64,000 nucleotides of DNA from an uncultured Clostridia bacterium (GCA_948443805.1 CAOJUB010000004.1:13881-77880); one strand, 5' to 3'. Positions 1,754 through 53,706 are shown, counted from the first letter of the stretch. Made by a program: numbers and translations. Notes: generated by a model from the letters alone, not told the origin.

Positions 1754-1771
1754 TTATAAAAATTTCTTCTT

Positions 1772-3342: not shown

Positions 3343-3362
3343 TTTTTACTTCCTTTCTATTT

Positions 3363-3926: not shown

Positions 3927-3946
3927 ATACATTCTCCTTTTCCTTC

Positions 3947-4894: not shown

Positions 4895-4956
4895 TTTTAC
4901 TTCCAATCTTTTAGCAAATTTTTTTGTCTCTCGGTTCTTTAATTTTGTATACATCT

Positions 4957-4987
4957 ATTATAAACTCTTCCCCAACGGAATAGTCAA
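4957..4987 (-). promoter_or_regulatory. MerR-type promoter: TTGACT-19 bp-TATAAT with a dyad in the spacer
   Basis: Minus strand reads TTGACT attccgttggggaagagtt TATAAT (19-nt spacer counted by hand). Imperfect dyad ACTCTTCC-N5-GGAATAGT (4964-4984) is centred on the spacer. Confidence 0.7.
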
Positions 4988-5132
4988 GTCATTTTACATA
5001 AATTTCAAAAATAGTTCAAAATTCAACAGATTCATACAAAAAGAAAAGAATAGAGATAACAGAAAAAGCAAAAGAAATAGAACTAACCAATAAAAACATG
5101 TTGCGTTTCTTTATACGAAAAAAATAAAATTT

Positions 5133-6383
5133 TTAATCTGAAAGATTCGCCAGCGCCTTTTGCATATAGATCAATGCATATTCTTCCAGTTCCCTGCTTC
5201 TGCGTAACCGTTCAATAATATGACTTCTCTTGTCTTTCAAAGCCTCTTTCGGAATCGTACTAAGCTGAGCGGCAATCATCATAATCTCATAAGCAAAACT
5301 TATAATTTCATCATACTGTTTAACCGCCAGCGCCAGGTATTCTTTATCGATACCAGAAATGATATTCATACTCATTTCCAAAAATTGCTTAATTCTTAAT
5401 TTATCCTCATAATGAATAAATGCATGCGGATAAAGACAATGAATCTGATCTGCTTCCTTTACATTTTCTTCTTTCAGCAAATCACTCCAATTTTGATAAA
5501 TTACCATCCCGTAACCGCGCATTTTATCCTTCCCAGAATGTTCTGTATTTAATAGCAATCGAATTCCATTGTGAAGCGCTTTGATACAAGCCTGTTCAAC
5601 CGACAGAGTTTTTCCGGCAGGTTTCAAAATCAGCATATCGCAGCTGTTCCGATACCAACCAGTACATTGATTAAGTTGATTAAAGTCGATTTTAATATTT
5701 TTATCATCACAACCATCTAAAAAACATAGGCCTTTTAAAACTCGTCCCTGATCAGAATATCCCACAGCAAAGATAACATCCCGATATTCTTTCGGAATAA
5801 TAATAACCGGATAGCCGCTTTCAATTTGTTTCCGTGCAACCTCAATAAACTCTTCTTCTGAAAAATCCTGCTGTGATAAATTTTCATAATCTAGCCCATA
5901 GATCAAAAAACTATCCCGGATCCACTCAGGCGGAGCATAGGAATATCCGAAACAAATACTGCTGATCGCAGACTGAAGAATATATTCAGAATCATCATTC
6001 ATCTGACAATTTTGATGGTTTCTCCGTTCTTCCAAACCGAAAAATAATTTAATGGCGGTAAAGAGAGAACCGAGCATAATACTTTTCGGCCACTTTGATC
6101 CAGAATATTCGGCAACAGGAGCTTTCGACAAAATGGTAAACTCATAGTTAAAGTTCGCTGCATACAAAGCGCTTGATTCAAAATTTAGAATAGCATCTAC
6201 GGGGCAATGAAATAAATCTGCCATTTGTACTAAAAAAGTAACGTTCGGCACGGCATTCCCGTTTTCCCATTTGCTGACTGCCTGAGACGAAATCCCCAGC
6301 TTCTCCGCTAAATTTTCTTGCGTATACTTATTTTTTTGCCGTAAAAAAGCGATTTTCTTCCCCATTTTTTTAGCATCAAACAT
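5133..6383 (-). CDS. XRE-family HTH protein fused to a ~345-aa uncharacterised C-terminal domain
   Basis: N-terminal HTH_3 motif YTQENLAEKLGISSQAVSKWENG. AAAGGTGGAG RBS. C-terminal region not recognised. Possibly a papain-like/BtrH-N-like fold (weak). Confidence 0.85.
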   Translation of the reverse strand: MFDAKKMGKKIAFLRQKNKYTQENLAEKLGISSQAVSKWENGNAVPNVTFLVQMADLFHCPVDAILNFESSALYAANFNYEFTILSKAPVAEYSGSKWPKSIMLGSLFTAIKLFFGLEERRNHQNCQMNDDSEYILQSAISSICFGYSYAPPEWIRDSFLIYGLDYENLSQQDFSEEEFIEVARKQIESGYPVIIIPKEYRDVIFAVGYSDQGRVLKGLCFLDGCDDKNIKIDFNQLNQCTGWYRNSCDMLILKPAGKTLSVEQACIKALHNGIRLLLNTEHSGKDKMRGYGMVIYQNWSDLLKEENVKEADQIHCLYPHAFIHYEDKLRIKQFLEMSMNIISGIDKEYLALAVKQYDEIISFAYEIMMIAAQLSTIPKEALKDKRSHIIERLRRSRELEEYALIYMQKALANLSD

Positions 6384-6411
6384 ACCCTTTCTCCACCTTT
6401 CTTTTTTTATT

Positions 6412-6440
6412 ATTATAGCACCATTTTATCAGGTAGTCCA
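6412..6440 (-). promoter_or_regulatory. Sigma-A-type promoter TGGACT-17-TATAAT with extended TG
   Basis: Minus strand reads TGGACT acctgataaaatggtgc TATAAT, upstream of the XRE-fusion gene. Confidence 0.5.
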
Positions 6441-6504
6441 TATAAATTAGGTTGTTTTTTCAATCAGGAACTCTACTTCAGGTTGTATTTTTTTATTTGC
6501 AAAG

Positions 6505-6542
6505 AAGTAGCAGTTCTGCAATGATAAATAGAACTGCTACTT
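6505..6542 (-). terminator. 13-bp perfect hairpin without a U tract (possible operon end or RNA stabiliser)
   Basis: AAGTAGCAGTTCT (6505-6517) pairs with AGAACTGCTACTT (6530-6542) around a 12-nt loop. It lies 45 nt downstream of the 190-aa gene on the minus strand. No T-run follows. Confidence 0.4.
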
Positions 6543-6586
6543 AGGCGATAATATCATACAAAGCATGTGCTTTTTCAAGTTAAAAT

Positions 6587-7159
6587 TTATTTGCAGTATC
6601 GATCCAATACCGCATTACTCCAAATATGCGCTTCCACATATTTTAAATGATGATTGATATGTTTATCTGTAGGATAAATACCCCGTTTGAAATCATATTC
6701 CACATAGGGAGGGAATCCATAACGGTCAATAATTTTAATGATTTCATCTGCAAAATAAACCTGATTCCAATATTCCTCTTCGCCAAATAACGCAGGATCC
6801 AAAATTGCAAAGGAATCACCGTAAGTAAAAGAAACAGTCAGCGGATCAAATTCGGTAAGCGGTATTTTGATAACCGCAGGATTTTCATAAGCGGACGCCC
6901 ATTGTTTGTGTTCACCCAACATCATATAAATTGGCACTGTTCTTTGTGGATTGCCGCCGCGTGCGAGAAACATCTTCCGCAGTTTCCGATCCCTGTCGTA
7001 ACGCTTTTGCAAAAAAACATCGATATTCGGATGACGAAATTTTCCGTCTGCCTTTTGCTGCAGTAAAATCTGTTTCGCTTCTTCAAATGGCAATTCCGTT
7101 AAAGATTTAAACGGCTTAAAATCTCGATTATAATAATGAAACAAAAACAATATATTCAC
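6587..7159 (-). CDS. Hypothetical protein (190 aa)
   Basis: ORF with a GTG start overlapping the VanZ stop (GTGA). No family recognised and no clear RBS, so translational coupling is assumed. Confidence 0.6.
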   Translation of the reverse strand: MNILFLFHYYNRDFKPFKSLTELPFEEAKQILLQQKADGKFRHPNIDVFLQKRYDRDRKLRKMFLARGGNPQRTVPIYMMLGEHKQWASAYENPAVIKIPLTEFDPLTVSFTYGDSFAILDPALFGEEEYWNQVYFADEIIKIIDRYGFPPYVEYDFKRGIYPTDKHINHHLKYVEAHIWSNAVLDRYCK

Positions 7160-7656
7160 CTGTAAGATTTATTTGGGGATATGTTTTTTTCCGTTTTTTT
7201 ACGAAAACAATATGTAAAGAAAATTTTTCCTAAAACCATACAAAAGATTCCGCAAAATGCGCCCAAAGAATCGATTAAGATATCCTGAACCATCGGCCCC
7301 CTGCCGGAAATAATCTGAATGGATTCATCGGTAACGGCAATCAACACTGAAAAAGAAAAGGCGTTCCAAAATTTTTGCAGAGAGAAGCGAAAATCATCAA
7401 TGAAAAAAAATAAAACGGATTCTCCCCCAAGAAGAAAATATTCCGAAAAATGCGCAAGTTTCCGGATATATTTTTCAATAAACAGGAAAACTGAAGAATT
7501 TTCCGCACCAACAGAAATGAAGATATTCCGAATCCATTCTAAAAGCCCGGAGCTCTGCTCTGCGGAATCGGCCTGAGAAAAAGACGAATTTCCCCAAATA
7601 AAACAGACTGTAAAAAAGAGAAAAAAAGCAATAATCCACCTTTGTTTATTCTTCAC
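7156..7656 (-). CDS. VanZ-family membrane protein
   Basis: Multi-TM protein with LAHFSEYFLLG and DESIQ...GR...QDILIDSLGA motifs typical of VanZ-like proteins. GTG start overlaps the transferase 3' end by 11 nt. Confidence 0.8.
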   Translation of the reverse strand: MKNKQRWIIAFFLFFTVCFIWGNSSFSQADSAEQSSGLLEWIRNIFISVGAENSSVFLFIEKYIRKLAHFSEYFLLGGESVLFFFIDDFRFSLQKFWNAFSFSVLIAVTDESIQIISGRGPMVQDILIDSLGAFCGIFCMVLGKIFFTYCFRKKTEKNISPNKSYR

Positions 7657-8323
7657 GTTCCAATACGCTTTCTTTTTTTTCTGTAGTTATGTTTTTTTGC
7701 TTTCCGTCTCCTGTTCCGCCTTCTACTACGCCTTTATGCTGGATAACGGAAACAATTGTTCCGAAAAAGCACTTTACGTCAAAGCCAAACGTAATGTGCT
7801 GAACATATTCACCGTCATATCTTGCTTTATCCGGAATTTCCAGCGCATCGCGGCCATTAATCTGTGCCCAGCCGGTTAAGCCTGGACGAACATCATTTGC
7901 CCCATATTTGTCCCGTTCGGCAATCAGATCGTCTTGATTCCAAAGCGCCGGCCGAGGCCCGATCAACGCCATTTGTCCGATTAAAATATTAAAAATCTGA
8001 GGAAGCTCATCCAAACTTGTTTTTCTGAGAAATTTTCCTATCGGTGTAATCCACTGTTCCGGATTTTGAAGCAAATGTGTCGGCATATCCTTTGGCGTAT
8101 CGATCCGCATTGTCCGAAACTTCAAAATATAAAAATATTTTTTATGCGCGCCGATCCTTTTTTGCTTAAACAATACTGGTCCCGGTGAAGTAATTTTAAT
8201 AAGAAACGCTAAAATCAAAAGAATCGGTGAACAAACAAGGATCGCACAGAATGAAAGAATAACATCCAGAATTCGTTTGATACCGTTTTGGTATAACGAG
8301 CGTTTTTTTTCGGAAAAACGCAT
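7646..8323 (-). CDS. Polyprenyl-phosphate sugar-phosphate transferase (bacterial sugar transferase, WbaP/EpsL-like C-terminal type)
   Basis: Motifs PGPVLFKQKRIG, KFRTM, SLDELPQ, GPRP and GLTGWAQINGRD. Start set to ATG 8323, 7 nt after GGGGGA. Confidence 0.9.
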   Translation of the reverse strand: MRFSEKKRSLYQNGIKRILDVILSFCAILVCSPILLILAFLIKITSPGPVLFKQKRIGAHKKYFYILKFRTMRIDTPKDMPTHLLQNPEQWITPIGKFLRKTSLDELPQIFNILIGQMALIGPRPALWNQDDLIAERDKYGANDVRPGLTGWAQINGRDALEIPDKARYDGEYVQHITFGFDVKCFFGTIVSVIQHKGVVEGGTGDGKQKNITTEKKESVLEREE

Positions 8324-8482
8324 AAAATAATCCCCCAACAATCGGCAAATACATTAAAGAACCGATTTTTTATAAAAAGTACAGTCTTTTATTCTTCTTA
8401 CGATAAAAATAAACCAGAAGAGAGAAATCCCTCAGGTAAAAAGCCTTTCGGGACTTCCCTCTTGTTCTCTCCGAAAAGAGTT

Positions 8483-17632: not shown

Positions 17633-18133
17633 TTATTTTTTCCCCTTAAACTGTCTGTAAAGAAATTTCTTCCGGGTGAAGAAATTCCAGAAATAAACCA
17701 AAACAACTGCAATAGCTTTGCCGATAATATAATATTGATCCGTAGCAAAAAAACGAGTTCCAAAAGAAATATGTGAAACAAAATAACCGATTCCGAAAAG
17801 ACCGTGTTCCGAAAACGGAGCAATAATAATCTGAGTCAATAAAAGACCGGCAAACCCGATCGCCATAAAAAAACCGAAATCAAGTAATGCATTTTTTTCC
17901 ACGGCTTCCGGAAATACCCAATATCGGCAGACAAGATAGTTGACGAACAGTCCGGCAACAAAACCGAGAATCGTAGAATAAAATTCACCAAAGAAAAAAA
18001 ATTCTTCACAAATGATCAGAATAACAAAATCAACGATTGTTCCGGTAATTCCGGCAATCATATTTCGGAAAAATTGAACCGCGATGTTTTCAGGTTTTCC
18101 GGAAAATATTTTTTTTAGCATGAAATTCCCCAT
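17633..18133 (-). CDS. GtrA-family membrane protein
   Basis: Four-TM small protein with the GtrA-like N-terminal motif FFRNMIAGITGTIVDF. Confidence 0.8.
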   Translation of the reverse strand: MGNFMLKKIFSGKPENIAVQFFRNMIAGITGTIVDFVILIICEEFFFFGEFYSTILGFVAGLFVNYLVCRYWVFPEAVEKNALLDFGFFMAIGFAGLLLTQIIIAPFSEHGLFGIGYFVSHISFGTRFFATDQYYIIGKAIAVVLVYFWNFFTRKKFLYRQFKGKK

Positions 18134-20064: not shown

Positions 20065-20095
20065 CAATTTGAAAAAAACAGAGGAGTTGTTTTTC

Positions 20096-20539
20096 TTGAA
20101 ACAGGAAGAATATAAAAAATTAGTCAAAGAGAAAACAGAAAATTCCCCCCTGGCAAAAGACTGTATTTTCGCTTTTTTAATCGGGGGAGCAATCTGTCTT
20201 CTGGGGCAATTCATCAACAGTTTTTATACCGGAACATTACATTTAGAAAAAGATTCCGCCGCAGCGTTTACATCAATCACCTTGATTGGGCTCAGCGCTT
20301 TGCTGACCGGAATCGGGCTTTACGATAAACTGGCCAAATACGGCGGCGCCGGAACGCTTGTCCCGATCACGGGATTTTCCAATTCCGTGGCCTCCCCCGC
20401 CATTGAATTCAAAAAAGAAGGACTTATTCTGGGAATGGCGCCGAAAATGTTTATTATTGCAGGGCCTGTTATTGTATATGGCACCGTAGCCTCGGCAATT
20501 TACGGAATCATATATCTGATTATTCAGAACTTTTTCTAA
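20096..20539 (+). CDS. spoVAC: Stage V sporulation protein AC
   Basis: SpoVAC motifs (GAGTLVPITGFSNSV). Start moved to in-frame TTG 20096, 9 nt after GAGGAG, because the track start at 20069 is also TTG but has no RBS. Confidence 0.9.
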   Translation: MKQEEYKKLVKEKTENSPLAKDCIFAFLIGGAICLLGQFINSFYTGTLHLEKDSAAAFTSITLIGLSALLTGIGLYDKLAKYGGAGTLVPITGFSNSVASPAIEFKKEGLILGMAPKMFIIAGPVIVYGTVASAIYGIIYLIIQNFF

Positions 20540-20577
20540 AGCAGAAACCGGATTCTAAAGAAAGGTACGATGAGGTA

Positions 20578-21591
20578 ATGAAAAAAATAGGAAGCGGAAC
20601 TTACAGACTCGCCAACCCTGTCGATATTACGGCACAGGAAGCCATTGTCGGGAAAATAGAAAAGGAAGGGCCGCTCGGAAAATATTTTACAAATTATTCA
20701 GAAGATGAGTATTTCGGTGAGGAAACGTTTGAAAAAGCAGAAAGCCGAATGCAAAAGGAGGTTTTAAACCGTGTTCTCGAACAATCAAAAGCTTCTCCAA
20801 AACCTATCGACTTCGTCTTTGCAGGCGATCTGCTCAATCAGTGCATTGGTTCGAATTACAGTATTCGCGATCTTAACATGCAATTTTTTGGGCTGTATGG
20901 CGCTTGTTCTACGATGGCGGAAGCGATAACCCTTGCCTGCATGGCAATCGATGGCGGTTTTGCCGAAAGAAGCATAGCTATGACGTCGTCACATTTCTGT
21001 TCGGCAGAACGGCAATTCCGTTTTCCGCTTGAATACGGAAGCCAGCGGCCGCCGGCAGCGCAATGGACCGTAACCGGTTCAGGCTGTCTGCTTCTTGAAA
21101 CCGGCAAAGTAGGATCAGGCTGTCCGAAAGTTACGGAAATTTGTCCCGGCGCCATTTGCGATATGGGCATTTCGGATCAAAACAATATGGGCGCGGCAAT
21201 GGCCGCTGCGGCGGAACTGACGATCAAAAGATTCCTGGACGACACCAAAAGTTCACCGGAAGATTACGACCTGATTGTTACTGGGGATCTTGGTCATATC
21301 GGACACAGCATTTTGGTGGAACTTCTTGCTAAAGACAATATACAGGCCGGAAGCAATTTTGATGACTGCGGAAAGATGATTTTTGATAAGAATTCTCAGG
21401 ATACGCATTCCGGAGGTTCCGGCTGCGGCTGTTCGGCAACAGTTCTGGCTGGATATATTCTGCCGGAAATGAAAAAAGGAACTCTGAAAAATGTTCTTTT
21501 TATCGCAACCGGCGCACTAATGAGCCCGGTTAGTACCCTTCAGAATGAAAGTATTCCGGGAATTGCACATTTGATTCATATAACGGCGTAA
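20578..21591 (+). CDS. spoVAD: Stage V sporulation protein AD
   Basis: Thiolase-like SpoVAD, 337 aa, in conserved C-D-E order. Confidence 0.93.
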   Translation: MKKIGSGTYRLANPVDITAQEAIVGKIEKEGPLGKYFTNYSEDEYFGEETFEKAESRMQKEVLNRVLEQSKASPKPIDFVFAGDLLNQCIGSNYSIRDLNMQFFGLYGACSTMAEAITLACMAIDGGFAERSIAMTSSHFCSAERQFRFPLEYGSQRPPAAQWTVTGSGCLLLETGKVGSGCPKVTEICPGAICDMGISDQNNMGAAMAAAAELTIKRFLDDTKSSPEDYDLIVTGDLGHIGHSILVELLAKDNIQAGSNFDDCGKMIFDKNSQDTHSGGSGCGCSATVLAGYILPEMKKGTLKNVLFIATGALMSPVSTLQNESIPGIAHLIHITA

Positions 21592-21603
21592 AGGAGAGAA
21601 ACG

Positions 21604-21957
21604 ATGATCTATTTAAACAGTTTTTTGTTCGGCGGTCTGTTATGCGTCGTCGGGCAAATCCTGATCAGCAAAACAAAATTGACCCCGGCAAGAATTTTGA
21701 CCGGCTATGTCGTTGCCGGCGTAATCCTCTCCGCGTTTGGACTATATGAAAAATTTGTCGAATTTGCAGGAGCCGGCGCTACTGTTCCCCTAACCGGATT
21801 CGGCCACCTGTTAGCGAAAGGAATCCGGAAAGCGGTAACAGAAACCGGTTTTCTCGGTGTGTTTACCGGTGGAATAACGGCCGCAGCAGCAGGTATTGCT
21901 TCCGCAGTTCTGTTCGCGTTTATCGTTGGGTTGCTGTTTTCTTCCAAAAGAAAATAA
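21604..21957 (+). CDS. spoVAE: Stage V sporulation protein AE (AEB type)
   Basis: 117-aa membrane paralogue of SpoVAC (GAGATVPLTGFGH). Confidence 0.9.
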   Translation: MIYLNSFLFGGLLCVVGQILISKTKLTPARILTGYVVAGVILSAFGLYEKFVEFAGAGATVPLTGFGHLLAKGIRKAVTETGFLGVFTGGITAAAAGIASAVLFAFIVGLLFSSKRK

Positions 21958-31068: not shown

Positions 31069-31205
31069 ATAAATGTGGAAAATTTTGTAAAGCACGGCTG
31101 CGGCATAGAGTCATATAACACTTCGCCAGCTGTGCATAGAAAAATTCATTAGATAACAATCATAATAATAAGCCATTTTATATGATTCATTCAGGAGATT
31201 TCATT

Positions 31206-32069
31206 ATGAAAATAAAAAACTTATTACTGGAAGCACTAAAAGGCAGCGCAACAGGCGCCTCCATGCTGGTTCCCGGCGTCAGCGGCGGAACCATGGCGTT
31301 GCTGATGGGATTTTACGACAAACTTCTTGACGCTACCGGTTCTTTTTTCAAAAATCCGAAAAAGAACAGCCTGACGCTGCTTTTTTACATATGTTTTGTC
31401 GGCTTGGGATTTATCCTTTTCTCTAACGTTATGTCATTTCTTTTAAATACTATCGGACAACCGATGTATTTATTTTTTATCGGAACAATTCTGTGCAGTA
31501 TTCCATTTCTTGTCAAGAAAGCCGGTATTTCCGTTTTAAAAGGGACGGATTTTCTGTTTACTGTTGCCGGTATTCTTTTTGTCGTGCTGTTGTCGGTGCT
31601 TCCGGAAGGAATTTTAAATTATGCGGAAGCCTCCGGTCCGATGAAAGCAGTTGCGCTGTTCGCTTCGGGAATTCTGATCGCGATTGCGTTGGTTCTTCCC
31701 GGCGTTTCCCTTTCTCACATTTTATTGGTTCTTGGAATTTATGAGACGATTCTGGAAGCTGTCAAAAACTTTGATCTGAAATTTCTTCTTCCCATTGGCA
31801 TATTCTCTCTGATCGGCGTTCTTGTGGTTGTAAAAGGGCTGGATCTCGCCATGAAAAAATTCACCAAACAGACTTTTATGACGATCATTGGCTTTATCAT
31901 CGCATCGTCGGTAGATATCTTCATAAAAAATATATCCGCAGAACCGCCGGCTGGCATAACGGTTTTTTACTGTATTCTGGCCTTTCTTCTCGGCGGAGGA
32001 ATGACATTTATACTTTCCTCTTTCTCTCAAAAAACAAAATCGGCAAAGGAGGCTGAAAATCATGGCTAA
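31206..32069 (+). CDS. DUF368-family membrane protein (family implicated in polyprenyl-phosphate translocation)
   Basis: VPGVSGGTMALLMG and LPGVSLSHILL repeat motifs typical of DUF368. ATG 31206 lies 8 nt after AGGAG. Confidence 0.8.
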   Translation: MKIKNLLLEALKGSATGASMLVPGVSGGTMALLMGFYDKLLDATGSFFKNPKKNSLTLLFYICFVGLGFILFSNVMSFLLNTIGQPMYLFFIGTILCSIPFLVKKAGISVLKGTDFLFTVAGILFVVLLSVLPEGILNYAEASGPMKAVALFASGILIAIALVLPGVSLSHILLVLGIYETILEAVKNFDLKFLLPIGIFSLIGVLVVVKGLDLAMKKFTKQTFMTIIGFIIASSVDIFIKNISAEPPAGITVFYCILAFLLGGGMTFILSSFSQKTKSAKEAENHG

Positions 32070-43202: not shown

Positions 43203-43221
43203 CCCCCCCCCGAAAAAACGA

Positions 43222-43254
43222 AAGAATCCGGCTTGTCCAAGCCGGATTCTTTTC
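43222..43254. terminator. Bidirectional hairpin terminator
   Basis: AAGAATCCGGCTT / AAGCCGGATTCTT 13-bp stem with a 4-nt loop. T-rich on both sides. Confidence 0.8.
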
Positions 43255-43256
43255 AT

Positions 43257-44003
43257 TTAATCATTGAAAACAAATTTCAGGACATCCGGAAGCACCCGGT
43301 CCCAAAGTCCCCATTCATGTGTTCCTTCAACCTCATGATATTCAAGCGGGATGTTCCGCTCCTGAAGATAACGGCTGAATTTCCGGTTATCTTCCAATAA
43401 AAGATCGCTGATACCGCACATCTGATACAAACGGGGAAACGGTTTTCCAGCCTGAATCAGCCGGTCGGCAAGGGCAAATAGATCAGCATCCGAACCTGGC
43501 ATGGTTTTACAATAATCGTCACCCCAAATCGGACGTGCAAAATCAGCATTCTCTTCATCGGAGAGAGCGGCGCAGATATTGGTCACCCCCGACAGGCTTG
43601 CCGCAGCCCCAAAAATATCCGGATTTCGCAGAGCAAGCATAAACGCGCCGTAACCGCCCATAGAAATTCCGGCGACAAAAGTATCTTCCGGCCGTTCGGA
43701 CAAATGGAACATCCGGCGGGTCTGCGGAATCAATTCGTTTATAATATAGGAATAATACGGTTTTCCGACCGCCATATCGGTATAAAAACTATTTTCCCCG
43801 TCAGGGCAGATCAGCGCCGCAGTATGACTTCTGATATACCGTTCCGCACTGGTTCTGCGAAACCAGGTCGTGCAATCATCGCCCATTCCATGCAGCAGAT
43901 AAAGAGTTTTCACATTGTCCTCAGCATACTCCGGCAAATAGACATTAAACCTTGTTTCATGCCCTAAAAGATATGATGGACAGTTACAGGTAAACATTGC
44001 CAT
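43257..44003 (-). CDS. Esterase-family protein (putative esterase / esterase-D-like)
   Basis: LLHGMG... and nucleophile elbow GISMGG. Confidence 0.85.
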   Translation of the reverse strand: MAMFTCNCPSYLLGHETRFNVYLPEYAEDNVKTLYLLHGMGDDCTTWFRRTSAERYIRSHTAALICPDGENSFYTDMAVGKPYYSYIINELIPQTRRMFHLSERPEDTFVAGISMGGYGAFMLALRNPDIFGAAASLSGVTNICAALSDEENADFARPIWGDDYCKTMPGSDADLFALADRLIQAGKPFPRLYQMCGISDLLLEDNRKFSRYLQERNIPLEYHEVEGTHEWGLWDRVLPDVLKFVFND

Positions 44004-44029: not shown

Positions 44030-44785
44030 TTATTCCACTATTACATCCGTATCCCAGGATATAAGTACCGAATCCTGTACTTCGGCAGCATTAAAACGAT
44101 AATGACCGGTGGGTTCCGCTATGGATAAATAATTTTCTTCTCGGTTCAGCTGACCTCCGTTATGAATAATATAGGCTTTACCGTCCCGGCTCCTTTGATC
44201 CGAAACAATCCCGATATGGGTATCATCGCCGAAGATTACGATATCACCCGGCTGCCAGGAGGAAAGATCATCCGGATCAACGGGTAACGGCTGGGCATAT
44301 TTCTGAAAAAACACCCGCAGGTTTTTTACCCGGCGAAAATCAATGTTCCGATCCCTTACGGAAACATTAGGATAGTCCTCCGGAAATCTTTCGATATCCT
44401 GATCGACCATATCGCGTAAAGAATATCCGGCCTGCCGAAAAGCGCGCCAAACAACATCGGTGCAAACGCCGATCTCTTTCGGCGGATATCCCTGCGGCCA
44501 GTAACGGTCATCGTATTTCGGATGATTTTCCGCATCTTCCCTTGCCCCGTAAAGCATATCCGTATAGTCATCTATCCCATTCTGGTTCCGGTCACAGGAA
44601 GAATAGATTCTCTCTATCCCCAAATCTTCCATGGACTGAGAATGAACAAAAAAATGATACCATCCAAAAACAAACGCAAGAATCAAAAGAAAAAGAAAAA
44701 TCAGAAGAAAAATGAAAATTTTTTTATTTTGCTGAAAGCTGTGATCCGTTTTCAGTTCCGGATGCCGCCGAAGACGCAACGTCAA
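44030..44785 (-). CDS. DUF1287-domain membrane-anchored protein
   Basis: TM anchor plus GVCTDVVWRAFRQAGY...PGDIVIF...HIGIV motifs. TTG start 8 nt after GAGGGTG. Overlaps the capD-like 3' end by 62 nt. Confidence 0.75.
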   Translation of the reverse strand: MTLRLRRHPELKTDHSFQQNKKIFIFLLIFLFLLILAFVFGWYHFFVHSQSMEDLGIERIYSSCDRNQNGIDDYTDMLYGAREDAENHPKYDDRYWPQGYPPKEIGVCTDVVWRAFRQAGYSLRDMVDQDIERFPEDYPNVSVRDRNIDFRRVKNLRVFFQKYAQPLPVDPDDLSSWQPGDIVIFGDDTHIGIVSDQRSRDGKAYIIHNGGQLNREENYLSIAEPTGHYRFNAAEVQDSVLISWDTDVIVE

Positions 44786-46721
44786 AAGTTTTCACCCTCT
44801 CCTGTTCGCTTTGAGAAGCAGTATGATAAGTGGGAACGATTTTATTCAACATTGTTTTAATATCTCCGCCGTCACTGTAAGCCAGTTCCTTCAGTGTTTT
44901 CAGGTCGTTCATCAAAACATCTTCATCCAGCTTAATCGGATGACCGATAAAAATCCGATTGTTTGAAGTCTTCGTCAGCCCCTCTTCGTCCATCAGCATT
45001 TCTTCATACAGCTTTTCTCCGGGACGCAGACCGGTAAACTGAATATCAATATCGATATACGGTTTAAAACCGGAAAGCCGGATCAGGTTTTCAGCAAGGT
45101 CAACAATTTTTACCGGTTTCCCCATATCAAGAACAAAGATTTCCCCACCCTTTGCAAAGGCGCCGGCCTGCAAAACAAGAGAAACCGCTTCGGGAATCGT
45201 CATAAAATAACGGATGATGTCCGGATGGGTAACCGTAACCGGACCGCCTTCTTTGATCTGCCGTTTAAAAAGAGGAATCACACTCCCGTTACTTCCCAAA
45301 ACATTTCCAAACCGAACGGCGACAAATTCTGTTTTTGATTTTTTATTATAGGTCTGAACAATCATTTCACAGATCCGCTTGGTCGTCCCCATAATATTGG
45401 TCGGGTTTACCGCTTTATCGGTAGAAATCATAACAAACCGGGAAACCTGATACGAATCGGCCGCAGCGACTACGTTCAGGGTACCAAAAACATTGTTTTT
45501 CACCGCTTCTTTCGGAGAATCCTCCATTAAGGGAACATGCTTATGCGCCGCCGCATGATAGACAATATCCGGACGGTGAGCGGCAAATACCTGGTTGACA
45601 CGGTCCGCATCCCGTACCGAGCCGATCAGCACAGCCAGATCCAACTCCGGATGAGACGATTTTAATTCATTCTGTATATCATATGCGTTATTTTCATAGA
45701 TATCAAATATAATGAGTTTTTTAGGCGAATTCTCCGCCAACTGCCGACATAACTCACTGCCGATAGAACCTCCACCGCCGGTAACAAGAACCGTCTTGTT
45801 CTTTACATATTTCATAACGCTGTCAAGTTCCGTCGTAATCGGTTCCCGGCCTAACAGATCGTTGATATCAACTTTTCTTACCGACTGTATAGTAACGGCG
45901 CCGTCGATAAGCTGATAAAGACCGGGAACGGTCTTCAGCTCACAATCTGTCTGATTGCAGATTTCCAGCAAATCCGCCTTTTCTTTTTGAGTAAGCGAAG
46001 GAATGGCAATGATAATTTCATCGACTTTATATTTTTCAACCACGCTGCAAATACTGTCTCTTGTCCCGAGAACGGTAACGCCGTTGATAGCCTGTCCCTG
46101 CACATTTTTATCATCATCAATAAAACCGACAATTTCCATTGTGCTGCGCAGCGCCGTAGAATTAATTTCCCGAAGAAGCATATTCCCAGCCTTTCCGGCG
46201 CCGATAATAAGAAGGCGACGCTTTTCGACATCAGGCATTTCTTCCGGATCATGCTTTTTTCGAAGCTGTAAAAGCGCAATTACTTTCAAAATAACCCGAA
46301 TCCCAACCGTAGCGCAGGAAGCCGTCATCATCGAAATCAAATAGCAACTCAGCGGCAGACGGCAGTCAAAAAAATGATCCAATAGCAAGCTGCCGGCAAG
46401 ATGCAAAATAGAAAGAATAAAGTTTGCAAAAACAAGAAAACCCCATTCCCGCACATCGGCAAACCGCCACATATTTTTATAAATGCCAAACAGCCAGAAA
46501 ACGGCAATAACCGTTAACGTATAAAACGGAATATAAGCAAAATAACTGTTCAGATATTCTCCCAAAATCCGGGATTCATCGATGGAACGAACCCAAAGAG
46601 AAAAAAATACAGAGAAATTCAGAAGAAGAATGTCAAGAATCATATAGAGTACTACCCTTATTTTTCCTAATCTTCCCCCGGATTCAATATTTAAAAAAGT
46701 AGCTGATTTTTCGTTTTTCAT
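44724..46721 (-). CDS. Membrane-bound polysaccharide biosynthesis protein CapD/EpsC/PglF-like (NDP-sugar 4,6-dehydratase)
   Basis: Four N-terminal TM helices, two Rossmann motifs (IIGAGKAG, VTGGGGSIG) and an SDR core (AAHKHVP). Confidence 0.9.
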   Translation of the reverse strand: MKNEKSATFLNIESGGRLGKIRVVLYMILDILLLNFSVFFSLWVRSIDESRILGEYLNSYFAYIPFYTLTVIAVFWLFGIYKNMWRFADVREWGFLVFANFILSILHLAGSLLLDHFFDCRLPLSCYLISMMTASCATVGIRVILKVIALLQLRKKHDPEEMPDVEKRRLLIIGAGKAGNMLLREINSTALRSTMEIVGFIDDDKNVQGQAINGVTVLGTRDSICSVVEKYKVDEIIIAIPSLTQKEKADLLEICNQTDCELKTVPGLYQLIDGAVTIQSVRKVDINDLLGREPITTELDSVMKYVKNKTVLVTGGGGSIGSELCRQLAENSPKKLIIFDIYENNAYDIQNELKSSHPELDLAVLIGSVRDADRVNQVFAAHRPDIVYHAAAHKHVPLMEDSPKEAVKNNVFGTLNVVAAADSYQVSRFVMISTDKAVNPTNIMGTTKRICEMIVQTYNKKSKTEFVAVRFGNVLGSNGSVIPLFKRQIKEGGPVTVTHPDIIRYFMTIPEAVSLVLQAGAFAKGGEIFVLDMGKPVKIVDLAENLIRLSGFKPYIDIDIQFTGLRPGEKLYEEMLMDEEGLTKTSNNRIFIGHPIKLDEDVLMNDLKTLKELAYSDGGDIKTMLNKIVPTYHTASQSEQERVKTFDVASSAASGTENGSQLSAK

Positions 46722-46785: not shown

Positions 46786-48012
46786 TTACCGGTTCAGATG
46801 AACCAAATGGCGAACCTGAAATCCGTAATTTTTTAAATGTGCCAGGTCGACCTGTGTTTGCTCGACTGTTGAATCGTTTTGATCAAAGAAAAAGACCGTG
46901 GTTTCAGTATATTTTTTCATATACCGATGATCCGCAACATCTCGCGCCGAACCGGCGACAAAAACAGAATCAAACTCTTCGGAAAGCAGCCTAAATATTT
47001 CCTCCGGTATTTTTCCATCCGATGCTATATCGGAAAAACTGGCCAAAAACAGAGGACTATTATCCAATTGCCAAACAGGAATCTTCTTTTCGGTCAGAGT
47101 AACAGATTTCAGCTTTTTCTCATTCCATTTTTCATCCGTCAGATTCACCAGAAGCGTTTTCTTTTTCTTTCCGGCAAAAAATAACGCAATATCTTTAAAA
47201 ATTCTCTTCGGAGAATGTCTTTCCCCCCAGATTCCGGTCAATAAAACATATTTTTCTCCGGAATCCAGCAGTTCATGAGACATCTGCATAAGAGGGATTG
47301 TATAACTTCCGGAAGAAACATCGCCCCTTGGCCGCGGAAGCAGGCACACGGAACAGTCTTTATCCAAAGACGCCAGAAAAGCGGTAAAATTACCGTCCCG
47401 CAACAAAGCATGCAGCCAGGTAATAACAGCAGACAATACAAATCCAAATAAAAGAATCAAAATGAAAACTTTTGTGGAATAAAGAATATTCGATTCGGTA
47501 TTTTTGATATCGCCGGGAGATATCAGGCAAAAGCCGATAATTTTTTCCGCATGTTTTTCAAAAAGCGAAACGCTATCTTTTAAAAACTGTTCCGCCAGTT
47601 CCGCTTCCGAAGAAGAAACAGAAAAACGCAACGAAGTTTTGTCCGCAAGAACTTCCACCGATATTTTCGGACGGTTTTCGGTTTCTGAAATCTCCAAAAC
47701 ATCAGAATAGAAAGCATCGCTTTCCAGATATTCCTGAACGACTTCCATAATGGCCTTCATAGAATCCTGACCGTATAGGAATTCCAGATTATTCCCGCCG
47801 ACCGTTGCCACATCGGAAGTTTTCAAAGAAACCTGAACCACCATTTCAGAAGTATATGTCATATTGTAGTGCGCTTTTTTCATGAAAAACAAAGTGCCTA
47901 CAGCAAGAAGTCCGATCAATATTCCAAGCCAACCGATTTTTTTAAAAGAATCCCAATATAAAGAAATCTGGCGGTTCAAGGCTGTAATATCACGATCCGA
48001 TCGTTCTTTCAT
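46786..48012 (-). CDS. Wzz-type polysaccharide co-polymerase fused to a strongly degenerate BY-kinase/ParA-like domain
   Basis: TM - extracytoplasmic domain - TM, then a ~200-aa cytoplasmic domain with P-loop-fold topology but GIWGERHS in place of Walker A. AAGGAGGTGA RBS. ATGA overlap with the upstream gene. Confidence 0.65.
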   Translation of the reverse strand: MKERSDRDITALNRQISLYWDSFKKIGWLGILIGLLAVGTLFFMKKAHYNMTYTSEMVVQVSLKTSDVATVGGNNLEFLYGQDSMKAIMEVVQEYLESDAFYSDVLEISETENRPKISVEVLADKTSLRFSVSSSEAELAEQFLKDSVSLFEKHAEKIIGFCLISPGDIKNTESNILYSTKVFILILLFGFVLSAVITWLHALLRDGNFTAFLASLDKDCSVCLLPRPRGDVSSGSYTIPLMQMSHELLDSGEKYVLLTGIWGERHSPKRIFKDIALFFAGKKKKTLLVNLTDEKWNEKKLKSVTLTEKKIPVWQLDNSPLFLASFSDIASDGKIPEEIFRLLSEEFDSVFVAGSARDVADHRYMKKYTETTVFFFDQNDSTVEQTQVDLAHLKNYGFQVRHLVHLNR

Positions 48013-49253
48013 CTTACTGTCACCTCCTTGCAATCAGCATGCAAAAACCGATTTCTCACACAGCATAGAATATTCCCGATGATTTTTTTATCGGAAAGCG
48101 CAGTGAACGCAACAGCCGAAGAAAAACGTTTTGCCGAAGAGCAATCGGAATCAATAACAAACAGAACAGATTCCGCAACATCAGGAAGACGGTCGCCGAC
48201 GGATATATGGCTAATCGCAGGATAATCCCATAAAACACAGTCAACCGACTCCGCAATTTTTTTGACCATAGCTTCGGCTTCTTCCCCGTCAGAAGAAAGC
48301 GAGTAGAACAGCGGCTTGCCGATATTTTCTTTCTTCAAAACAAGATCATCAATATTCGTTTTCTGAAAAACAGGGGTCTGCTTCATTGATAAAGTAGCGT
48401 TAGAAACAACTGCGGTCTTTAGTCCTATCCGAGTCAGCGTTTGCGCCAAACAAGAAACAACATCAGACTTAACTTCAGATTTTTCCGCCGAAGCAACAAG
48501 GAAAATTTTTCTGCCGGAAAAAATCTCTGTTTGTATTTGAGCAGCAAAATTATCCAGCCAAAGCGGTATTCCATTTTTCAATTTCAAACAGGACTCCTGA
48601 TCGATTTTTACCTGAAAACCAGCCGAATCCGGAATTAATTCGTCAATATCCGAAAGTTTTTTAATCGCATTTACCGAAGCGGAAAAAATAATCAGAAAAA
48701 GAAAAATCAGGAAAAAGGATATCAGCGGAAAAATCAGATACAAAATTCCGGAGCCGGAACCATTCTGAACCAGGGTGTCCGGGAAATGAATAATTTCCAA
48801 CGCAGATATCGAATTAAAATAACTGGAGATATCAGGATAAGCGGCGATCAATGCGGAAATCGCATGATACGACTGCTCGGGAGAACTCCCCTGCGCGGAA
48901 ATGGTAATCAAACCGCTTTCCTTCTGCAGGGAAAGCGTCATTTTCGGTAATGAATGAAACGGTATTTCCGGGACAAATGACTCCCAGAGAGACTCGTTTT
49001 CCAAAACACTTTTTAAATTTCCGGAAGCCGTTTTGGCGGCAGAATTCGCGGACCAAATATTAGAAACCTGAGAATTGCGATCATAAATCCTGACTGTTGC
49101 GGAATATTCACCGCGATTGGACTGTGACCATCCGTTATTTTCATAAATATAGGCAGCCATCAATCCAAGCAGAACAGAAAGAAGAAGAACCCACCAATTT
49201 TTCCGGATGTCATCCGCAATATTAAGCAAATGAATTTTCAATGTTTTTTTCAT
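48009..49253 (-). CDS. Wzz-type polysaccharide co-polymerase fused to a BY-kinase-like domain with impaired Walker A and no Tyr cluster
   Basis: Wzz-like N-terminus (DIRKNWWVLLLSVLLG) and a second TM. Cytoplasmic domain IFLVASAEKSEVKSD...VDCVLWDYPA...IGNILCCVRN resembles CpsD/CapB order, but Walker A reads AEKSEVKS. ATG 49253 lies 8 nt after GAGGA. Confidence 0.65.
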   Translation of the reverse strand: MKKTLKIHLLNIADDIRKNWWVLLLSVLLGLMAAYIYENNGWSQSNRGEYSATVRIYDRNSQVSNIWSANSAAKTASGNLKSVLENESLWESFVPEIPFHSLPKMTLSLQKESGLITISAQGSSPEQSYHAISALIAAYPDISSYFNSISALEIIHFPDTLVQNGSGSGILYLIFPLISFFLIFLFLIIFSASVNAIKKLSDIDELIPDSAGFQVKIDQESCLKLKNGIPLWLDNFAAQIQTEIFSGRKIFLVASAEKSEVKSDVVSCLAQTLTRIGLKTAVVSNATLSMKQTPVFQKTNIDDLVLKKENIGKPLFYSLSSDGEEAEAMVKKIAESVDCVLWDYPAISHISVGDRLPDVAESVLFVIDSDCSSAKRFSSAVAFTALSDKKIIGNILCCVRNRFLHADCKEVTVR

Positions 49254-50211: not shown

Positions 50212-50415
50212 AAAATCCTCCATTCAATCTGCCGATAAAAACGGGAAATCCATGAAATTTTATAAAATTCTATTTTGAAATACCCGGATATGGCTTCTCC
50301 CTGAAGAGAATACCCTTCTACCCTGCCTGCTAACCTAATCAAATATTTGCCTGCTCGGAAAAACACCGGCGGCGCAACGCCCTGCTTGGCTAAATAGCCG
50401 AACAATGTTTTTCAC

Positions 50416-50435
50416 AAGAACAACTTGCTGTTCTT
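50416..50435. repeat. 20-bp palindrome copy 1: AAGAACAACTTGCTGTTCTT (one arm mismatch)
   Basis: Read directly. About +100 relative to the predicted start site of the operon leader. Confidence 0.9.
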
Positions 50436-50460
50436 TTCCTACCCATAAATTTCGCACCAG

Positions 50461-50514
50461 AAAAAAGCGGGGATTCGGAACGGATTTTCAACCGAACGGT
50501 TGAAACGCTTTTTT
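50461..50514. promoter_or_regulatory. Symmetric element A6GCG...CGCT6 enclosing hairpin TTTCAACC-GAAC-GGTTGAAA
   Basis: Read directly. On the plus strand the hairpin (50486-50505) is followed at once by CGCTTTTTT, so it is terminator-like and antisense to the operon. Confidence 0.6.
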
Positions 50515-50517
50515 CCC

Positions 50518-50537
50518 AAGAACAGCTTGCTGTTCTT
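50518..50537. repeat. 20-bp perfect palindrome copy 2: AAGAACAGCTTGCTGTTCTT
   Basis: Read directly. It starts 1 nt downstream of the -10 box of the operon promoter, in a candidate operator position. Confidence 0.9.
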
Positions 50538-50538
50538 T

Positions 50539-50567
50539 ATTATACCATATTTGACTTTTTTTGTCAA
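50539..50567 (-). promoter_or_regulatory. Consensus sigma-A promoter TTGACA-17-TGgTATAAT
   Basis: Minus strand reads TTGACA aaaaaagtcaaatatgg TATAAT (17-nt spacer counted by hand). It points at the 49258-50211 gene, about 320 nt away. Confidence 0.7.
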
Positions 50568-52144: not shown

Positions 52145-53617
52145 TTACAGAATAATGCAGATCAAACCGTTGCTTCCCTCATTAATAATTTTTTCAAGCG
52201 TCTCCCGAACCTTTTCCCTCGCATCGTCCGGCATGTGATACAATTTGCTGTGCAGCCCTTCATTGACCAGCTCGTAAAGCGTCTTGCCAAAAAGGTTACT
52301 GTCCCAGATTTTTTTCGGGTCTTCCTCAAACTCCGTAAGAAGATATTTGACCAGATCCTCCGACTGTTTTTCCGACCCGACAACCGGACTGACCTCCGTC
52401 TCAATTCTTGCCTTGATAATATGATACGACGGCGCCGCCGCTTTCAGCTTAACGCCGAAACGGCTTCCCTGCTTTACAATCTCCGGTTCATCCAGAGAAA
52501 GATCGGAAACTGAAGGCGTTACAATACCATATCCTTTACAGTCCGCTTCGGAAAGCGCATAAGATATTTTATCGAAACTTTCCTTGGATTTTGCCAGAGA
52601 AGAAACCAACGAAATCAAATCCCCATCATCGCCAATAGAAACCCCTGTTTCTTCACTGAGAATTTTATAGAAAAGAGATTTAGGCGACTCAATGACGATA
52701 TCAACCTTTCCCTCCCCCAATGTAACTTCCGACAAATCGCAAAGAGAAACGTTTTCATTTCCGGAAATCGTCTCGATCAGGTCATCTACCTGACGGATTT
52801 TTTTTACCCCTTCCGAACCGGACATAATATCCTCAAAAACCGAAGATTTCAGCCAGTGACTCCGAGGCAGTTTCACCATCCAGTCGGGAAGCGATATACC
52901 AACCTGCCGAATCGGAAATTCGAACAAAACCTGTTCCATAATCTTATGAATTTCCCGTTCTCCCATCGATAAACAATCGGTCGGAATCACGGGAACTCCA
53001 TATTTTTCAGAAAGAGACGCTGAAAGCTGTTTTGCGCTTTCTTCCGCAGGAGAAACCGTATTTAAAAGAACAACGAACGGTTTTTTTATATTTTTCAATT
53101 CATGAATAACCCGTTCTTCCGCTTCCACATAGTTTTCCCTCGGGATTTCACCAATGCTCCCGTCCGTCGTCACAACAATTCCGATTGTCGAGTGCTCACA
53201 GATGACTTTTCTTGTGCCGATTTCCGCAGCGGTATCAAAAGGCAGGGGTTCTTCCGACCATGGGGTGCTGACCATCCGGGGCTGCTCGTTTTCATCGAGC
53301 CCACGTGCACCGGGGACAATAAAACCGACACAGTCGATCAGCCGAACATTGGCTTTTGCATTTTTATCAAAAACCAGCTGTGCCGCCTCATTCGGTATAA
53401 ATTTAGGTTCGGTCGTCATGATTGTTTTACCGGCGGCGCTCTGAGGCAATTCATCCACGGCACGATCCCGGCTGTAATCATCCCCGATTTTCGGAATAAC
53501 AAGCTCTTCCATAAAACGCTTAATAAAAGTAGATTTTCCCGTCCTTACCGGACCGACGACACCAAGATAAATATCTCCCTGCGTCCGGCGAGAAATATCA
53601 GAATAGATGTTTTTCAT
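52145..53617 (-). CDS. spoIVA: Stage IV sporulation protein A (spore coat basement-layer ATPase)
   Basis: N-terminal Walker A GPVRTGKSTFIKRFM and full-length SpoIVA similarity. ATG 53617 lies 7 nt after GGAGG. Confidence 0.96.
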   Translation of the reverse strand: MKNIYSDISRRTQGDIYLGVVGPVRTGKSTFIKRFMEELVIPKIGDDYSRDRAVDELPQSAAGKTIMTTEPKFIPNEAAQLVFDKNAKANVRLIDCVGFIVPGARGLDENEQPRMVSTPWSEEPLPFDTAAEIGTRKVICEHSTIGIVVTTDGSIGEIPRENYVEAEERVIHELKNIKKPFVVLLNTVSPAEESAKQLSASLSEKYGVPVIPTDCLSMGEREIHKIMEQVLFEFPIRQVGISLPDWMVKLPRSHWLKSSVFEDIMSGSEGVKKIRQVDDLIETISGNENVSLCDLSEVTLGEGKVDIVIESPKSLFYKILSEETGVSIGDDGDLISLVSSLAKSKESFDKISYALSEADCKGYGIVTPSVSDLSLDEPEIVKQGSRFGVKLKAAAPSYHIIKARIETEVSPVVGSEKQSEDLVKYLLTEFEEDPKKIWDSNLFGKTLYELVNEGLHSKLYHMPDDAREKVRETLEKIINEGSNGLICIIL

Positions 53618-53706
53618 ACAAAATCCTCCGTACACTCTTCTTTTGATTCATTTATATGAAAACAAAGCTTATTTTATGTTCCGCATTCTCAAATCAGCGC
53701 CGGCAA

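Follow-up and report, generated by a model that had tools for sequence, protein, structure and literature searches.

What becomes of a polysaccharide co-polymerase (PCP) when the tyrosine kinase built into it has decayed, and can the machine still work? In the accepted model, the assembly and disassembly of PCP-2 co-polymerases depend on repeated rounds in which tyrosines are phosphorylated and dephosphorylated; versions with a pseudokinase have, to our knowledge, been recognised only recently, and only in Gram-negative bacteria. The question is raised by two adjacent genes, here called A and B, at positions 46,786 to 49,253 of a 64,000-nucleotide stretch of DNA from an uncultured Clostridia bacterium (GCA_948443805.1 CAOJUB010000004.1:13881-77880), hereafter the window. 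An earlier reading of the sequence alone (the sequence-only reading) had described them as two PCP-type co-polymerases of the Wzz kind, each fused to a degenerate domain resembling bacterial tyrosine kinases (BY-kinases) and each lacking a tyrosine cluster, a description that we could uphold at the level of sequence and predicted fold. A Gram-positive pair that has no kinase motifs, tails or phosphatase, yet is maintained by selection, would amount to a natural experiment on which parts of this machine are dispensable.

Architecture and kinase-like fold of A and B

Both minus-strand open reading frames (ORFs) and the ATGA junction between them lie exactly where the sequence-only reading had placed them, and the strings that it quoted (AEKSEVKS and VDCVLWDYPA in A, GIWGERHS in B) are all present. 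The overlap of the stop codon of A with the start codon of B, together with the AGGAGG upstream of it, suggests that translation of the two genes is coupled. AlphaFold2 models of A and B (mean predicted local distance difference test score 74–75) displayed the succession of transmembrane (TM) helix, ectodomain, TM helix and cytoplasmic domain that had been proposed for both proteins: the N-terminal TM helix is long, the ectodomain is an alpha/beta domain of about 125 residues, and the second TM helix leads into a cytoplasmic domain with a Rossmann-like fold, about 200 residues in size.

Family models registered these domains faintly or not at all. The Pfam Wzz model (PF02706) matched the N-termini of A and B at 17.0 and 13.6 bits, both under its gathering score of 25.5, a score that distant relatives found by profile search did pass (P0009, P0015 and P0027 among them). 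The BY-kinase model TIGR01007 aligned with residues 248–300 of A only, at 25.4 bits versus a cut-off of 108; B had no NCBIfam match, TIGR01007 included, and AAA_31, CbiA and ParA had no Pfam match in either protein. A HAD-hydrolase Pfam match of A (E = 3e-4, below cut-off) was rejected as a spurious Rossmann-like match. Among solved structures, the best sequence match of A was the Staphylococcus aureus CapA1B1 chimera, which the A-family profile matched with E = 6.5e-5 over A residues 244–399; A also weakly touched MinD, and the sole PDB sequence match of B was FlhF (E = 0.047).

Canonical relatives came into view by exhaustive search. Word-indexed searches, whether seeded with A, with B or with the A-family profile, returned three to four close relatives each and did not reach the canonical proteins, for which an exhaustive hidden Markov model (HMM) search with the B-family profile was needed. 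This search yielded 22 distant matches (E = 2.8e-9 to 8.2e-4), mostly of 450–520 amino acids, several of which aligned end to end; all distant relatives found were fused proteins of roughly 440–560 amino acids. Nine of ten distant matches scanned with Pfam contained AAA_31, ParA or CbiA, and five of the ten contained Wzz as well. The distant relatives had an intact GEGK[ST] in nearly all cases, with hhhDTPP and Tyr-rich tails in most.

Comparisons of the isolated cytoplasmic domains pointed the same way. Against the canonical kinase-domain profile, hhalign returned 97% probability for A (E = 2e-11) and 84% for B (E = 8e-6). In Foldseek searches of the PDB, full-length Wzc ranked first for both models (E = 2e-12 and 3e-13) and the top 50 matches per model contained, below the Wzc chains, BY-kinase domains only (CapA1B1, CapA2B2, Wzc, Etk, VpsO and BceF); kinase-domain matches of the predicted models had E values of 1e-5 to 2e-7, and sequence identity to Wzc in the structural alignments was 8–13%. 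As modelled, the cytoplasmic domains of A and B have a P-loop fold (MinD/SIMIBI-like) related to that of BY-kinases, and the two proteins share a Wzc/CapAB-like architecture over their full predicted length. The CapB1 match, hhalign and Foldseek all relate the C-terminal domains to P-loop ATPases, as had been supposed at the outset.

The catalytic apparatus itself is largely gone. Motifs, EX2RX2R included, were defined according to a 2022 review in the Journal of Biological Chemistry (PMC9800525) and located in alignments with canonical relatives. In the Walker A remnant of A, the Gly preceding the Lys has become Val, so that GX5GK[ST] is lost although K262 and S263 are retained; the residue preceding the Lys differs across the A family (Val, Gly or Met), and P0003 has Pro in place of Ser263. 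The P-loop position varies in the B family as well (GIWGERHS, GIWEKRNS and GIAGKDKT). Walker A' (phi4-D-x-D-x-R), which reads VLLVDADLR in relatives, is replaced by TAVVSNA in A and LLVNLTDEK in B. Walker B (phi4-D-x-x-P) survives in part in A as CVLWDYPA, its Asp kept and invariant and its final Pro changed to Ala, and is not evident in B, as first read, with Ala at the Asp position. The EX2RX2R ring motif of helix alpha2 is absent, its aligned position being occupied by LDNFAAQIQTEIF in A and YTIPLMQMSHELL in B, so any ring formed by these proteins must use an interface other than the canonical one. Neither protein has a tail past the last strand, and the earlier observation that neither has a Tyr-rich C-terminus was confirmed: the last 40 residues hold no Tyr in A and one in B, compared with 4–25 in most relatives. 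Because the degenerate positions differ within each family, we argue that these sites are unconstrained, with the exception of K262 and D343 in A; apart from these two, no column was invariant when the A family was aligned with 13 canonical kinases (17 sequences), and they leave room for a residual nucleotide-binding role. From their motifs, both A and B are predicted to be inactive as kinases.

The recurring Ig-K1-K2 module and its graded states

The pair belongs to a recurring module, in which an immunoglobulin (Ig)-like membrane protein is followed by two fused co-polymerase/kinases, termed K1 and K2, and which was found in 20 metagenomic loci. On the contigs of four distant relatives (L007–L010), an Ig-like protein of ~280–300 amino acids, homologous to that of the window (62–81 bits), precedes K1 and K2. 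The order in L007 is CpsB, Ig, K1, K2 and CapD-like, which is the order of the window plus cpsB in front, and a 4-nucleotide ATGA overlap joins its K1 and K2, too. A metagenome scan seeded with the Ig-like protein (as a three-sequence alignment) returned 80 loci, and in the closer class Ig was followed by two tandem fused kinases in 16 of the 16 loci with enough downstream DNA. In 17 loci, cpsB was the immediate upstream neighbour of the Ig gene, and several loci had a CapD-like gene downstream, directly or one to two genes on; the position of this gene after K2 is the same as in the window in L007, L031, L005 and L011. The window genes from 50211 down to 46786 match the module in having Ig, K1 and K2 in order, on one strand and closely spaced. 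Example coordinates of the module are L007:2785-6593 and L018:2654-6827, within the loci L007–L010 and L013–L038; L010 also carries Wzy_C and GT2 (glycosyltransferase) genes and cpsB beside it.

A distant class of loci (L042–L092; for example, L050:4340-6567) has a split pair, CpsC-like (260 amino acids) and CpsD-like (238 amino acids), followed by an Ig-like homologue, indicating that the Ig-like partner is not confined to the fused tandem form. This split-gene locus is nearly identical in dozens of gut metagenomes, mostly human-gut assemblies.

A and B had no significant similarity to each other in BLASTP, and hhalign of their families gave 44% probability at full length and 19% for the isolated cytoplasmic domains, such that their relationship was visible only by way of the canonical K1/K2 proteins. 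Clade-specific HMMs of K1 and K2, from which the L010 pair was left out as a control, scored the A family at 100, 108 and 91 bits with K1 and at 79, 89 and 74 bits with K2 (window A, 100 versus 79), and the B family at 32, 29 and 22 bits with K1 and at 58, 54 and 42 bits with K2 (window B, 32 versus 58). The controls scored 230 (K1) versus 193 bits (K2) for L010_K1 and 102 versus 173 bits for L010_K2. Taken with gene order, these scores identify A as the K1 orthologue and B as the K2 orthologue. In a neighbour-joining tree (no support values), K1 and K2 formed two clades with largely parallel branching across loci. The original view of two fused inactive paralogues is thus right as to the fused degenerate pair and needs amending as to its origin: A and B are degenerate orthologues of an old K1/K2 pair, not the outcome of a lineage-specific duplication.

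Relatives in other loci differ widely in motif and tail state. The K1 and K2 proteins of the compared loci have E-G-K-[ST] and the Walker B Asp (hhhD) in nearly all cases and DxD in most, and most K1–K2 pairs carry Tyr clusters (4–25 Tyr, counted over the whole C-terminal tail) on both subunits. Asymmetric tails were limited to L010, L021, L038 and, weakly, L009; in L021 and L038 the tail is on K2 only. In L010 (4153-6886), K1 has all motifs and no tail, and K2 (P0026) has a Tyr-rich tail and a Walker A Lys changed to Val, suggesting from these sequences that K1 trans-phosphorylates K2 in a mixed oligomer. Two further loci, L017 (6892-9703) and L028 (6887-9668), have no tail on K1 or K2 and no cpsB within 6 kb upstream; Walker A is intact in both L017 proteins, and in L028 its one departure is in K1, where the Lys is Thr. 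The L017 and L028 pairs are possible intermediates towards the state of the window and, as both of these other tail-less loci also have no upstream cpsB, they lend weak independent support to a switch to phosphorylation-independence. Judged by its motifs, the window pair is the extreme of a graded series.

One relative, P0010 (L006:322-2763; 813 amino acids), holds two complete TM-ectodomain-TM-kinase modules in one chain, a natural fusion of such a pair. Its first module has an intact GKEGKST; in its second, the P-loop is degenerate (SGENSS) and a Tyr cluster is lacking. We rejected P0010 as a clean A–B fusion, because both profiles score both halves similarly.

The A and B families themselves are rare in reference collections. 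Among 5.8 billion protein clusters, A had four relatives and B three, and the A- and B-family profiles found no relative in 185,579 GTDB species-representative genomes. Assemblies from NCBI, ENA and Logan contained the exact A and B proteins on some 14–29 contigs, and several alleles from different samples were intact and full-length. Although many metagenome samples contain exactly these proteins, the host lineage appears to be absent from the GTDB reference set. Synteny of the pair is preserved in relatives at 86% (L011) and about 47% identity (L005). The A–B junction is a 4-nucleotide overlap also in L011 and L012, and in L005 the B homologue again starts at the stop of the A homologue, in the preserved order A homologue, B homologue, CapD-like and DUF1287. 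In that same locus (L005:600-900), a frameshift splits the N-terminus of the B homologue (a relative of ~45% identity), and the gene caller took an internal Met, yielding P0007 without TM helix 1; the frameshift reflects either faulty assembly or a true lesion in that lineage.

In a single pairwise comparison with the 86%-identical relative (L011; Nei–Gojobori method), the ratio of non-synonymous to synonymous substitution rates (dN/dS) was 0.15 for A (ectodomain, 0.07; cytoplasmic domain, 0.20) and 0.14 for B (ectodomain, 0.08; cytoplasmic domain, 0.19), alongside 0.08 for the Ig-like gene and 0.02 for the CapD-like gene. The cytoplasmic domains of A and B evolve 2–3 times faster than the ectodomains. 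The degenerate domains are thus more relaxed than the remainder, yet clearly under purifying selection.

Operon and genomic neighbourhood

Six co-directional genes, from the Ig-like gene to a putative esterase gene, appear to form an operon bounded by a promoter-like and a terminator-like site, each recognised as a consensus match (Table 1). A leader of ~330 nucleotides (window 50224-50538, minus strand) separates the promoter-like site from the start of the Ig-like gene, and an Rfam scan of the operon region including this leader found nothing credible. The DUF1287 protein has an N-terminal hydrophobic segment and may be a cell-wall-active enzyme linked to the module; as noted, its gene keeps its place behind the CapD-like gene in L005.

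Table 1. Features of the A–B pair and of the inferred operon (window coordinates)
Feature	Position	Strand	Remarks
Promoter-like site, TTGACA-17-TATAAT with upstream TG	50539..50567	-	12/12 consensus match (sigma-70-type); between GH43 and Ig-like genes
Ig-like membrane-anchored protein, 317 aa	49258..50211	-	N-terminal TM, then Ig-like repeats; weak PF16403; GGAGGA 6 nt before ATG
Gene A, 414 aa, PCP-2-type co-polymerase with degenerate BY-kinase domain	48009..49253	-	K1 orthologue; from ATG, GAGGA upstream
A, TM helix 1, residues 20-37	49143..49196	-	hydrophobic WWVLLLSVLLGLMAAYIY, helical in model
A, TM helix 2, residues 169-192	48678..48749	-	GILYLIFPLISFFLIFLFLIIFSA, helical in model
A, Walker A remnant SAEKSEVKS, residues 255-263	48465..48491	-	aligned to T-S-x-x-x-x-E-G-K-[ST] of canonical relatives
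A, Walker B-like VDCVLWDYPA, residues 337-346	48216..48245	-	D343 retained
ATGA overlap, A stop codon / B start codon	48009..48012	-	AGGAGG upstream
Gene B, 408 aa, PCP-2-type co-polymerase with strongly degenerate BY-kinase domain	46786..48012	-	K2 orthologue; from ATG
B, TM helix 1, residues 26-44	47881..47937	-	AlphaFold2 model and sequence
B, TM helix 2, residues 182-204	47401..47469	-	AlphaFold2 model and sequence
B, P-loop position TGIWGERHS, residues 259-267	47212..47238	-	no G-K-[ST]
B, Walker B position FDSVFVAGSA, residues 347-356	46945..46974	-	catalytic Asp replaced by Ala (Glu in P0007)
CapD/PglF-like membrane UDP-sugar 4,6-dehydratase (Polysacc_synt_2)	44724..46721	-	PF02719, E 6e-127; next after B
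DUF1287 protein	44030..44785	-	PF06940, E 2e-51; weak CHAP cysteine-peptidase similarity; overlaps end of CapD-like gene
Putative esterase	43257..44003	-	Pfam PF00756; last gene of inferred operon
Terminator-like hairpin, 14 pairs and T-rich tail	43221..43252	-	closes inferred operon

A six-frame search of the window with the canonical kinase profile and a CpsB sequence returned A and B only, and Pfam scans of essentially all window ORFs of at least 100–150 amino acids found no BY-kinase, PHP phosphatase or low-molecular-weight protein tyrosine phosphatase (LMW-PTP), in agreement with the earlier statement that no partner kinase or CpsB-type phosphatase is present in the window. The remainder of the window is made up of housekeeping and sporulation genes (spoIVA, spoVA, pgk, tpi, radA-like, ftsH, valS and mfd), and the host is a spore-forming Firmicute of ~42% G+C.

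Several other genes of the window deserve mention. The spoIVA gene (window 52145-53635, minus strand) lies two genes upstream of the module, and in L008, an unrelated locus, spoIVA comes directly after K2 (L008:3849-4934); the window also contains spoVAC, spoVAD and spoVAE (20069-21957). The module could conceivably be tied to spore-envelope glycans. At 31182-32069 (plus strand) there is a VCA0040/DUF368-type undecaprenyl-phosphate translocase-like gene and at 17633-18133 (minus strand) a GtrA-like gene; both functions relate to lipid carriers and could belong to the same pathway for an envelope glycan. At 7646-8341, 40 kb from the operon, a small Bac_transf phosphoglycosyl transferase is encoded. 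It falls within the first 8,000 nucleotides (window 1-8000), where G+C is 0.37-0.39 versus ~0.43 and which also contain a phage-type integrase (284-1297), an ORF of the cytidine/deoxycytidylate-deaminase family (1301-1693), MerR and helix-turn-helix (HTH) regulators and VanZ; this region is perhaps an integrated element, or else an islet of glycan-related genes.

Readings of the pair and comparison with known systems

We consider it fairly probable that A and B are the K1 and K2 of a module that has become phosphorylation-independent and that works as a co-polymerase scaffold. In the lineage of the window, the kinase motifs, Tyr clusters and the neighbouring cpsB have been lost while both genes stayed intact, coupled and under purifying selection. 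A and B may join with the Ig-like protein to build a mixed ring in the membrane, a proposal that we make because the two are ancient paralogues that are always co-inherited, because their genes overlap and because asymmetric pairs such as that of L010 need K1 to act on K2; the Ig-like protein may be part of this ring, or touch it, outside the membrane. The TM helices and small ectodomains would act as co-polymerase in the usual way, serving a Wzy-type polymerase whose gene lies elsewhere, and the dead cytoplasmic domains would offer a fixed scaffold for oligomerisation or partner docking in place of the phosphorylation-driven assembly/disassembly switch, a role modelled on the proposal for EcpK/EpsV and HfsB/HfsA (PMC12004946). 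The CapD-like enzyme would supply the first committed sugar, and the sugar substrate probably starts from the 4-keto-6-deoxy-HexNAc (N-acetylhexosamine) that this enzyme makes.

A number of points count against this scaffold reading. K262 and D343 are invariant in all A-family members, which is unexpected of a completely dead site. Hetero-oligomerisation and the scaffold role are deduced from gene coupling and by analogy, and an active BY-kinase or phosphatase could be encoded outside the 64 kb inspected. The alignments given to AlphaFold2 contained canonical kinases, which may have biased the predicted fold, although HMMER and hhalign are independent of the models and mitigate this concern. 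The orthology of A with K1 and of B with K2 relies on HMM differences of ~15–26 bits and on gene order, and the neighbour-joining tree leaves the long-branched A and B families outside the K1 and K2 clades. The evidence for purifying selection comes from one pair of sequences. Finally, no Wzy, Wzx or glycosyltransferase genes were found near the operon, and Wzy, Wzx and LCP were not found in the 64-kb window.

The retained residues could be taken to mean that A still binds, and perhaps slowly hydrolyses, nucleotide through Lys262-Ser263 and Asp343, serving as a nucleotide-dependent conformational switch or as a weak kinase for other substrates, with B as its inactive partner. We think this unlikely. 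Besides the two invariant columns, it can draw on asymmetric pairs with the same division of labour (L010), albeit in the window without Tyr tails, and on L017, where an intact Walker A without tails or CpsB suggests that ATP use without tail phosphorylation occurs in this module. It is at odds with the Val, Gly or Met that precedes the Lys across the A family, with the Pro that replaces Ser/Thr in one member, with the absence of both the Mg2+-binding DxD of Walker A' (VVSNA) and EX2RX2R, and with the short, low-scoring TIGR01007 match (residues 248-300, 25 bits versus a cut-off of 108). Eukaryotic pseudokinases pair with active kinases, and A and B could be modulators or decoys in mixed rings with a genuine BY-kinase and phosphatase encoded elsewhere in the genome, of which our inspection covered 64 kb. 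Active and inactive BY-kinase duplicates have been discussed for S. aureus (CapB1/CapB2) and Bacillus subtilis (PtkA/PtkB) (PMC3795738), but A and B have no Tyr tail to serve as a substrate and have lost the ring-forming EX2RX2R, a promoter-like and a terminator-like site of its own make their operon self-contained, and Myxococcus xanthus EcpK appears to be independent of active kinases (PMC12004946); we regard such a role as quite improbable.

That the two genes are functionless leftovers of a capsule locus, decaying into pseudogenes, would fit the loss of all catalytic motifs, the absence of other capsule-locus genes from the window and the 2–3 times faster evolution of the cytoplasmic domains. 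Set against this are dN/dS values of 0.14–0.20, far below 1, the full-length ORFs, gene order and coupling kept in lineages of ~47% identity, and the many intact alleles in the population, which make decay very improbable. Least credible of all, and close to untenable, is the proposal that the C-terminal domains are generic P-loop domains of the MinD/ParA/FlhF type, unrelated to BY-kinases, and that the proteins are not co-polymerases. The FlhF match of B (E 0.047), its only sequence match in the PDB, and the weak MinD match of A speak for it; the full-length collinear matches to fused Wzz-kinase proteins, the structural ranking of full-length Wzc followed by BY-kinase domains only, and the synteny of relatives with cpsB and capD homologues speak against it.

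The graded relatives of the pair provide matched comparators for what the kinase cycle contributes, and the module with its graded series holds more promise than the window pair alone. As a broader and tentative idea, to which we give less than even weight, the module may be a hetero-oligomeric regulator of capsule or exopolysaccharide (EPS) synthesis in Clostridia-like Firmicutes, with the anciently diverged K1 and K2 alternating in the ring, the Ig-like protein as extracellular third subunit and a stepwise loss of phosphorylation tolerated. The proposed steps lead from active pairs with tails on both subunits, to pairs with one tail (L021, L038 and L010), to pairs with ATP motifs and neither tails nor phosphatase (L017 and L028), to the window, where both subunits would be dead. 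On this idea the window would be the natural end-point, showing that the ring co-polymerase function of a Gram-positive PCP-2 needs no kinase cycle at all. The module is common in gut and other metagenomes, and its recurrence suggests hetero-oligomeric BY-kinase rings, which structural work on homo-octamers has not addressed.

Several known systems bear comparison with the pair. In having one polypeptide with the order TM, ectodomain, TM and kinase fold, A and B resemble Escherichia coli Wzc (PCP-2a, P-type), their best full-length structural match. Wzc differs in its size (~720 amino acids), its long helical periplasmic domain that contacts Wza, its active Walker motifs, EX2RX2R and Tyr tail, and its Wzb phosphatase. 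The sequence-only reading had treated fused forms as a proteobacterial style, which does not hold: BYKdb lists 281 fused 'P-type' BY-kinases in Bacillota (PMC9800525), and all distant relatives found here are fused. The head of the S. aureus cap5/8 locus (CapA/CapB/CapC/CapD) likewise combines a small-ectodomain co-polymerase, a P-loop kinase domain and the membrane 4,6-dehydratase CapD, which makes UDP-2-acetamido-2,6-dideoxy-D-xylo-4-hexulose (PMC6441080); like it, the canonical K1/K2 relatives also have a PHP phosphatase. CapA and CapB, however, are separate polypeptides (the F-type paradigm), and CapB is active, with intact Walker motifs and a Tyr cluster (PMC6441080), whereas in the window both copies are fused and degenerate, and CapC/CpsB and all of the downstream cap genes are missing. 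Inactive paralogues have been discussed in S. aureus (CapB1) and B. subtilis (PtkB) (PMC3795738), although CapB1 was later shown to be active (PMC6441080). The canonical Ig-K1-K2 loci share with the window the same genes in the same order, a homologous Ig-like protein and, in L007 and L031, a CapD-like gene next in line; they differ in having E-G-K-S/T, hhhD, mostly DxD, Tyr clusters mostly on both subunits, and cpsB upstream.

Phosphorylation-independent PCP-2 systems with BY pseudokinases are already established in Gram-negative bacteria, as EcpK/EpsV of M. xanthus and HfsB/HfsA of Caulobacter crescentus (PMC12004946). Fused PCP-2 proteins with degenerate kinase domains, such as Sinorhizobium meliloti SMc01795 and Vibrio vulnificus VV1_2305, were listed by Cuthbertson et al. 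in 2009 (as cited in PMC12004946), and GumC has been termed a 'pseudo-BY-kinase' (PMC9800525). The concept was thus known, contrary to the earlier impression that such a pair had not been described; the impression stands for a Gram-positive tandem pair, of which we found no description. Literature searches on fused or tandem BY-kinases in Clostridia and on DUF5011/Ig-like partners returned no account of the module, and the searched, partial literature contained no description of the Ig-K1-K2 module, of tandem fused pairs in Firmicutes or of a pair with both members dead, which, as the coverage was incomplete, is weak evidence of novelty.

SMc01795, VV1_2305 and GumC resemble A and B in joining a co-polymerase and an inactive (in GumC, missing) kinase-like domain in one polypeptide; by their description they are set apart as proteobacterial, Wzc-size products of single genes. 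EcpK/EpsV and HfsB/HfsA share with the window pair a BY-kinase fold without functional Walker motifs or Tyr tail, a two-TM co-polymerase and a proposed scaffold role. They are Gram-negative systems in which a stand-alone pseudokinase binds the C-terminus of a separate co-polymerase and is required for glycan synthesis, and in which the co-polymerase has a large periplasmic domain and an outer-membrane polysaccharide export (OPX) partner. A and B, in contrast, are two fused paralogous subunits with ectodomains of ~125 amino acids and an Ig-like partner, in a spore-forming Firmicute, and their likeness to the EcpK/HfsB type is one at the level of the family.

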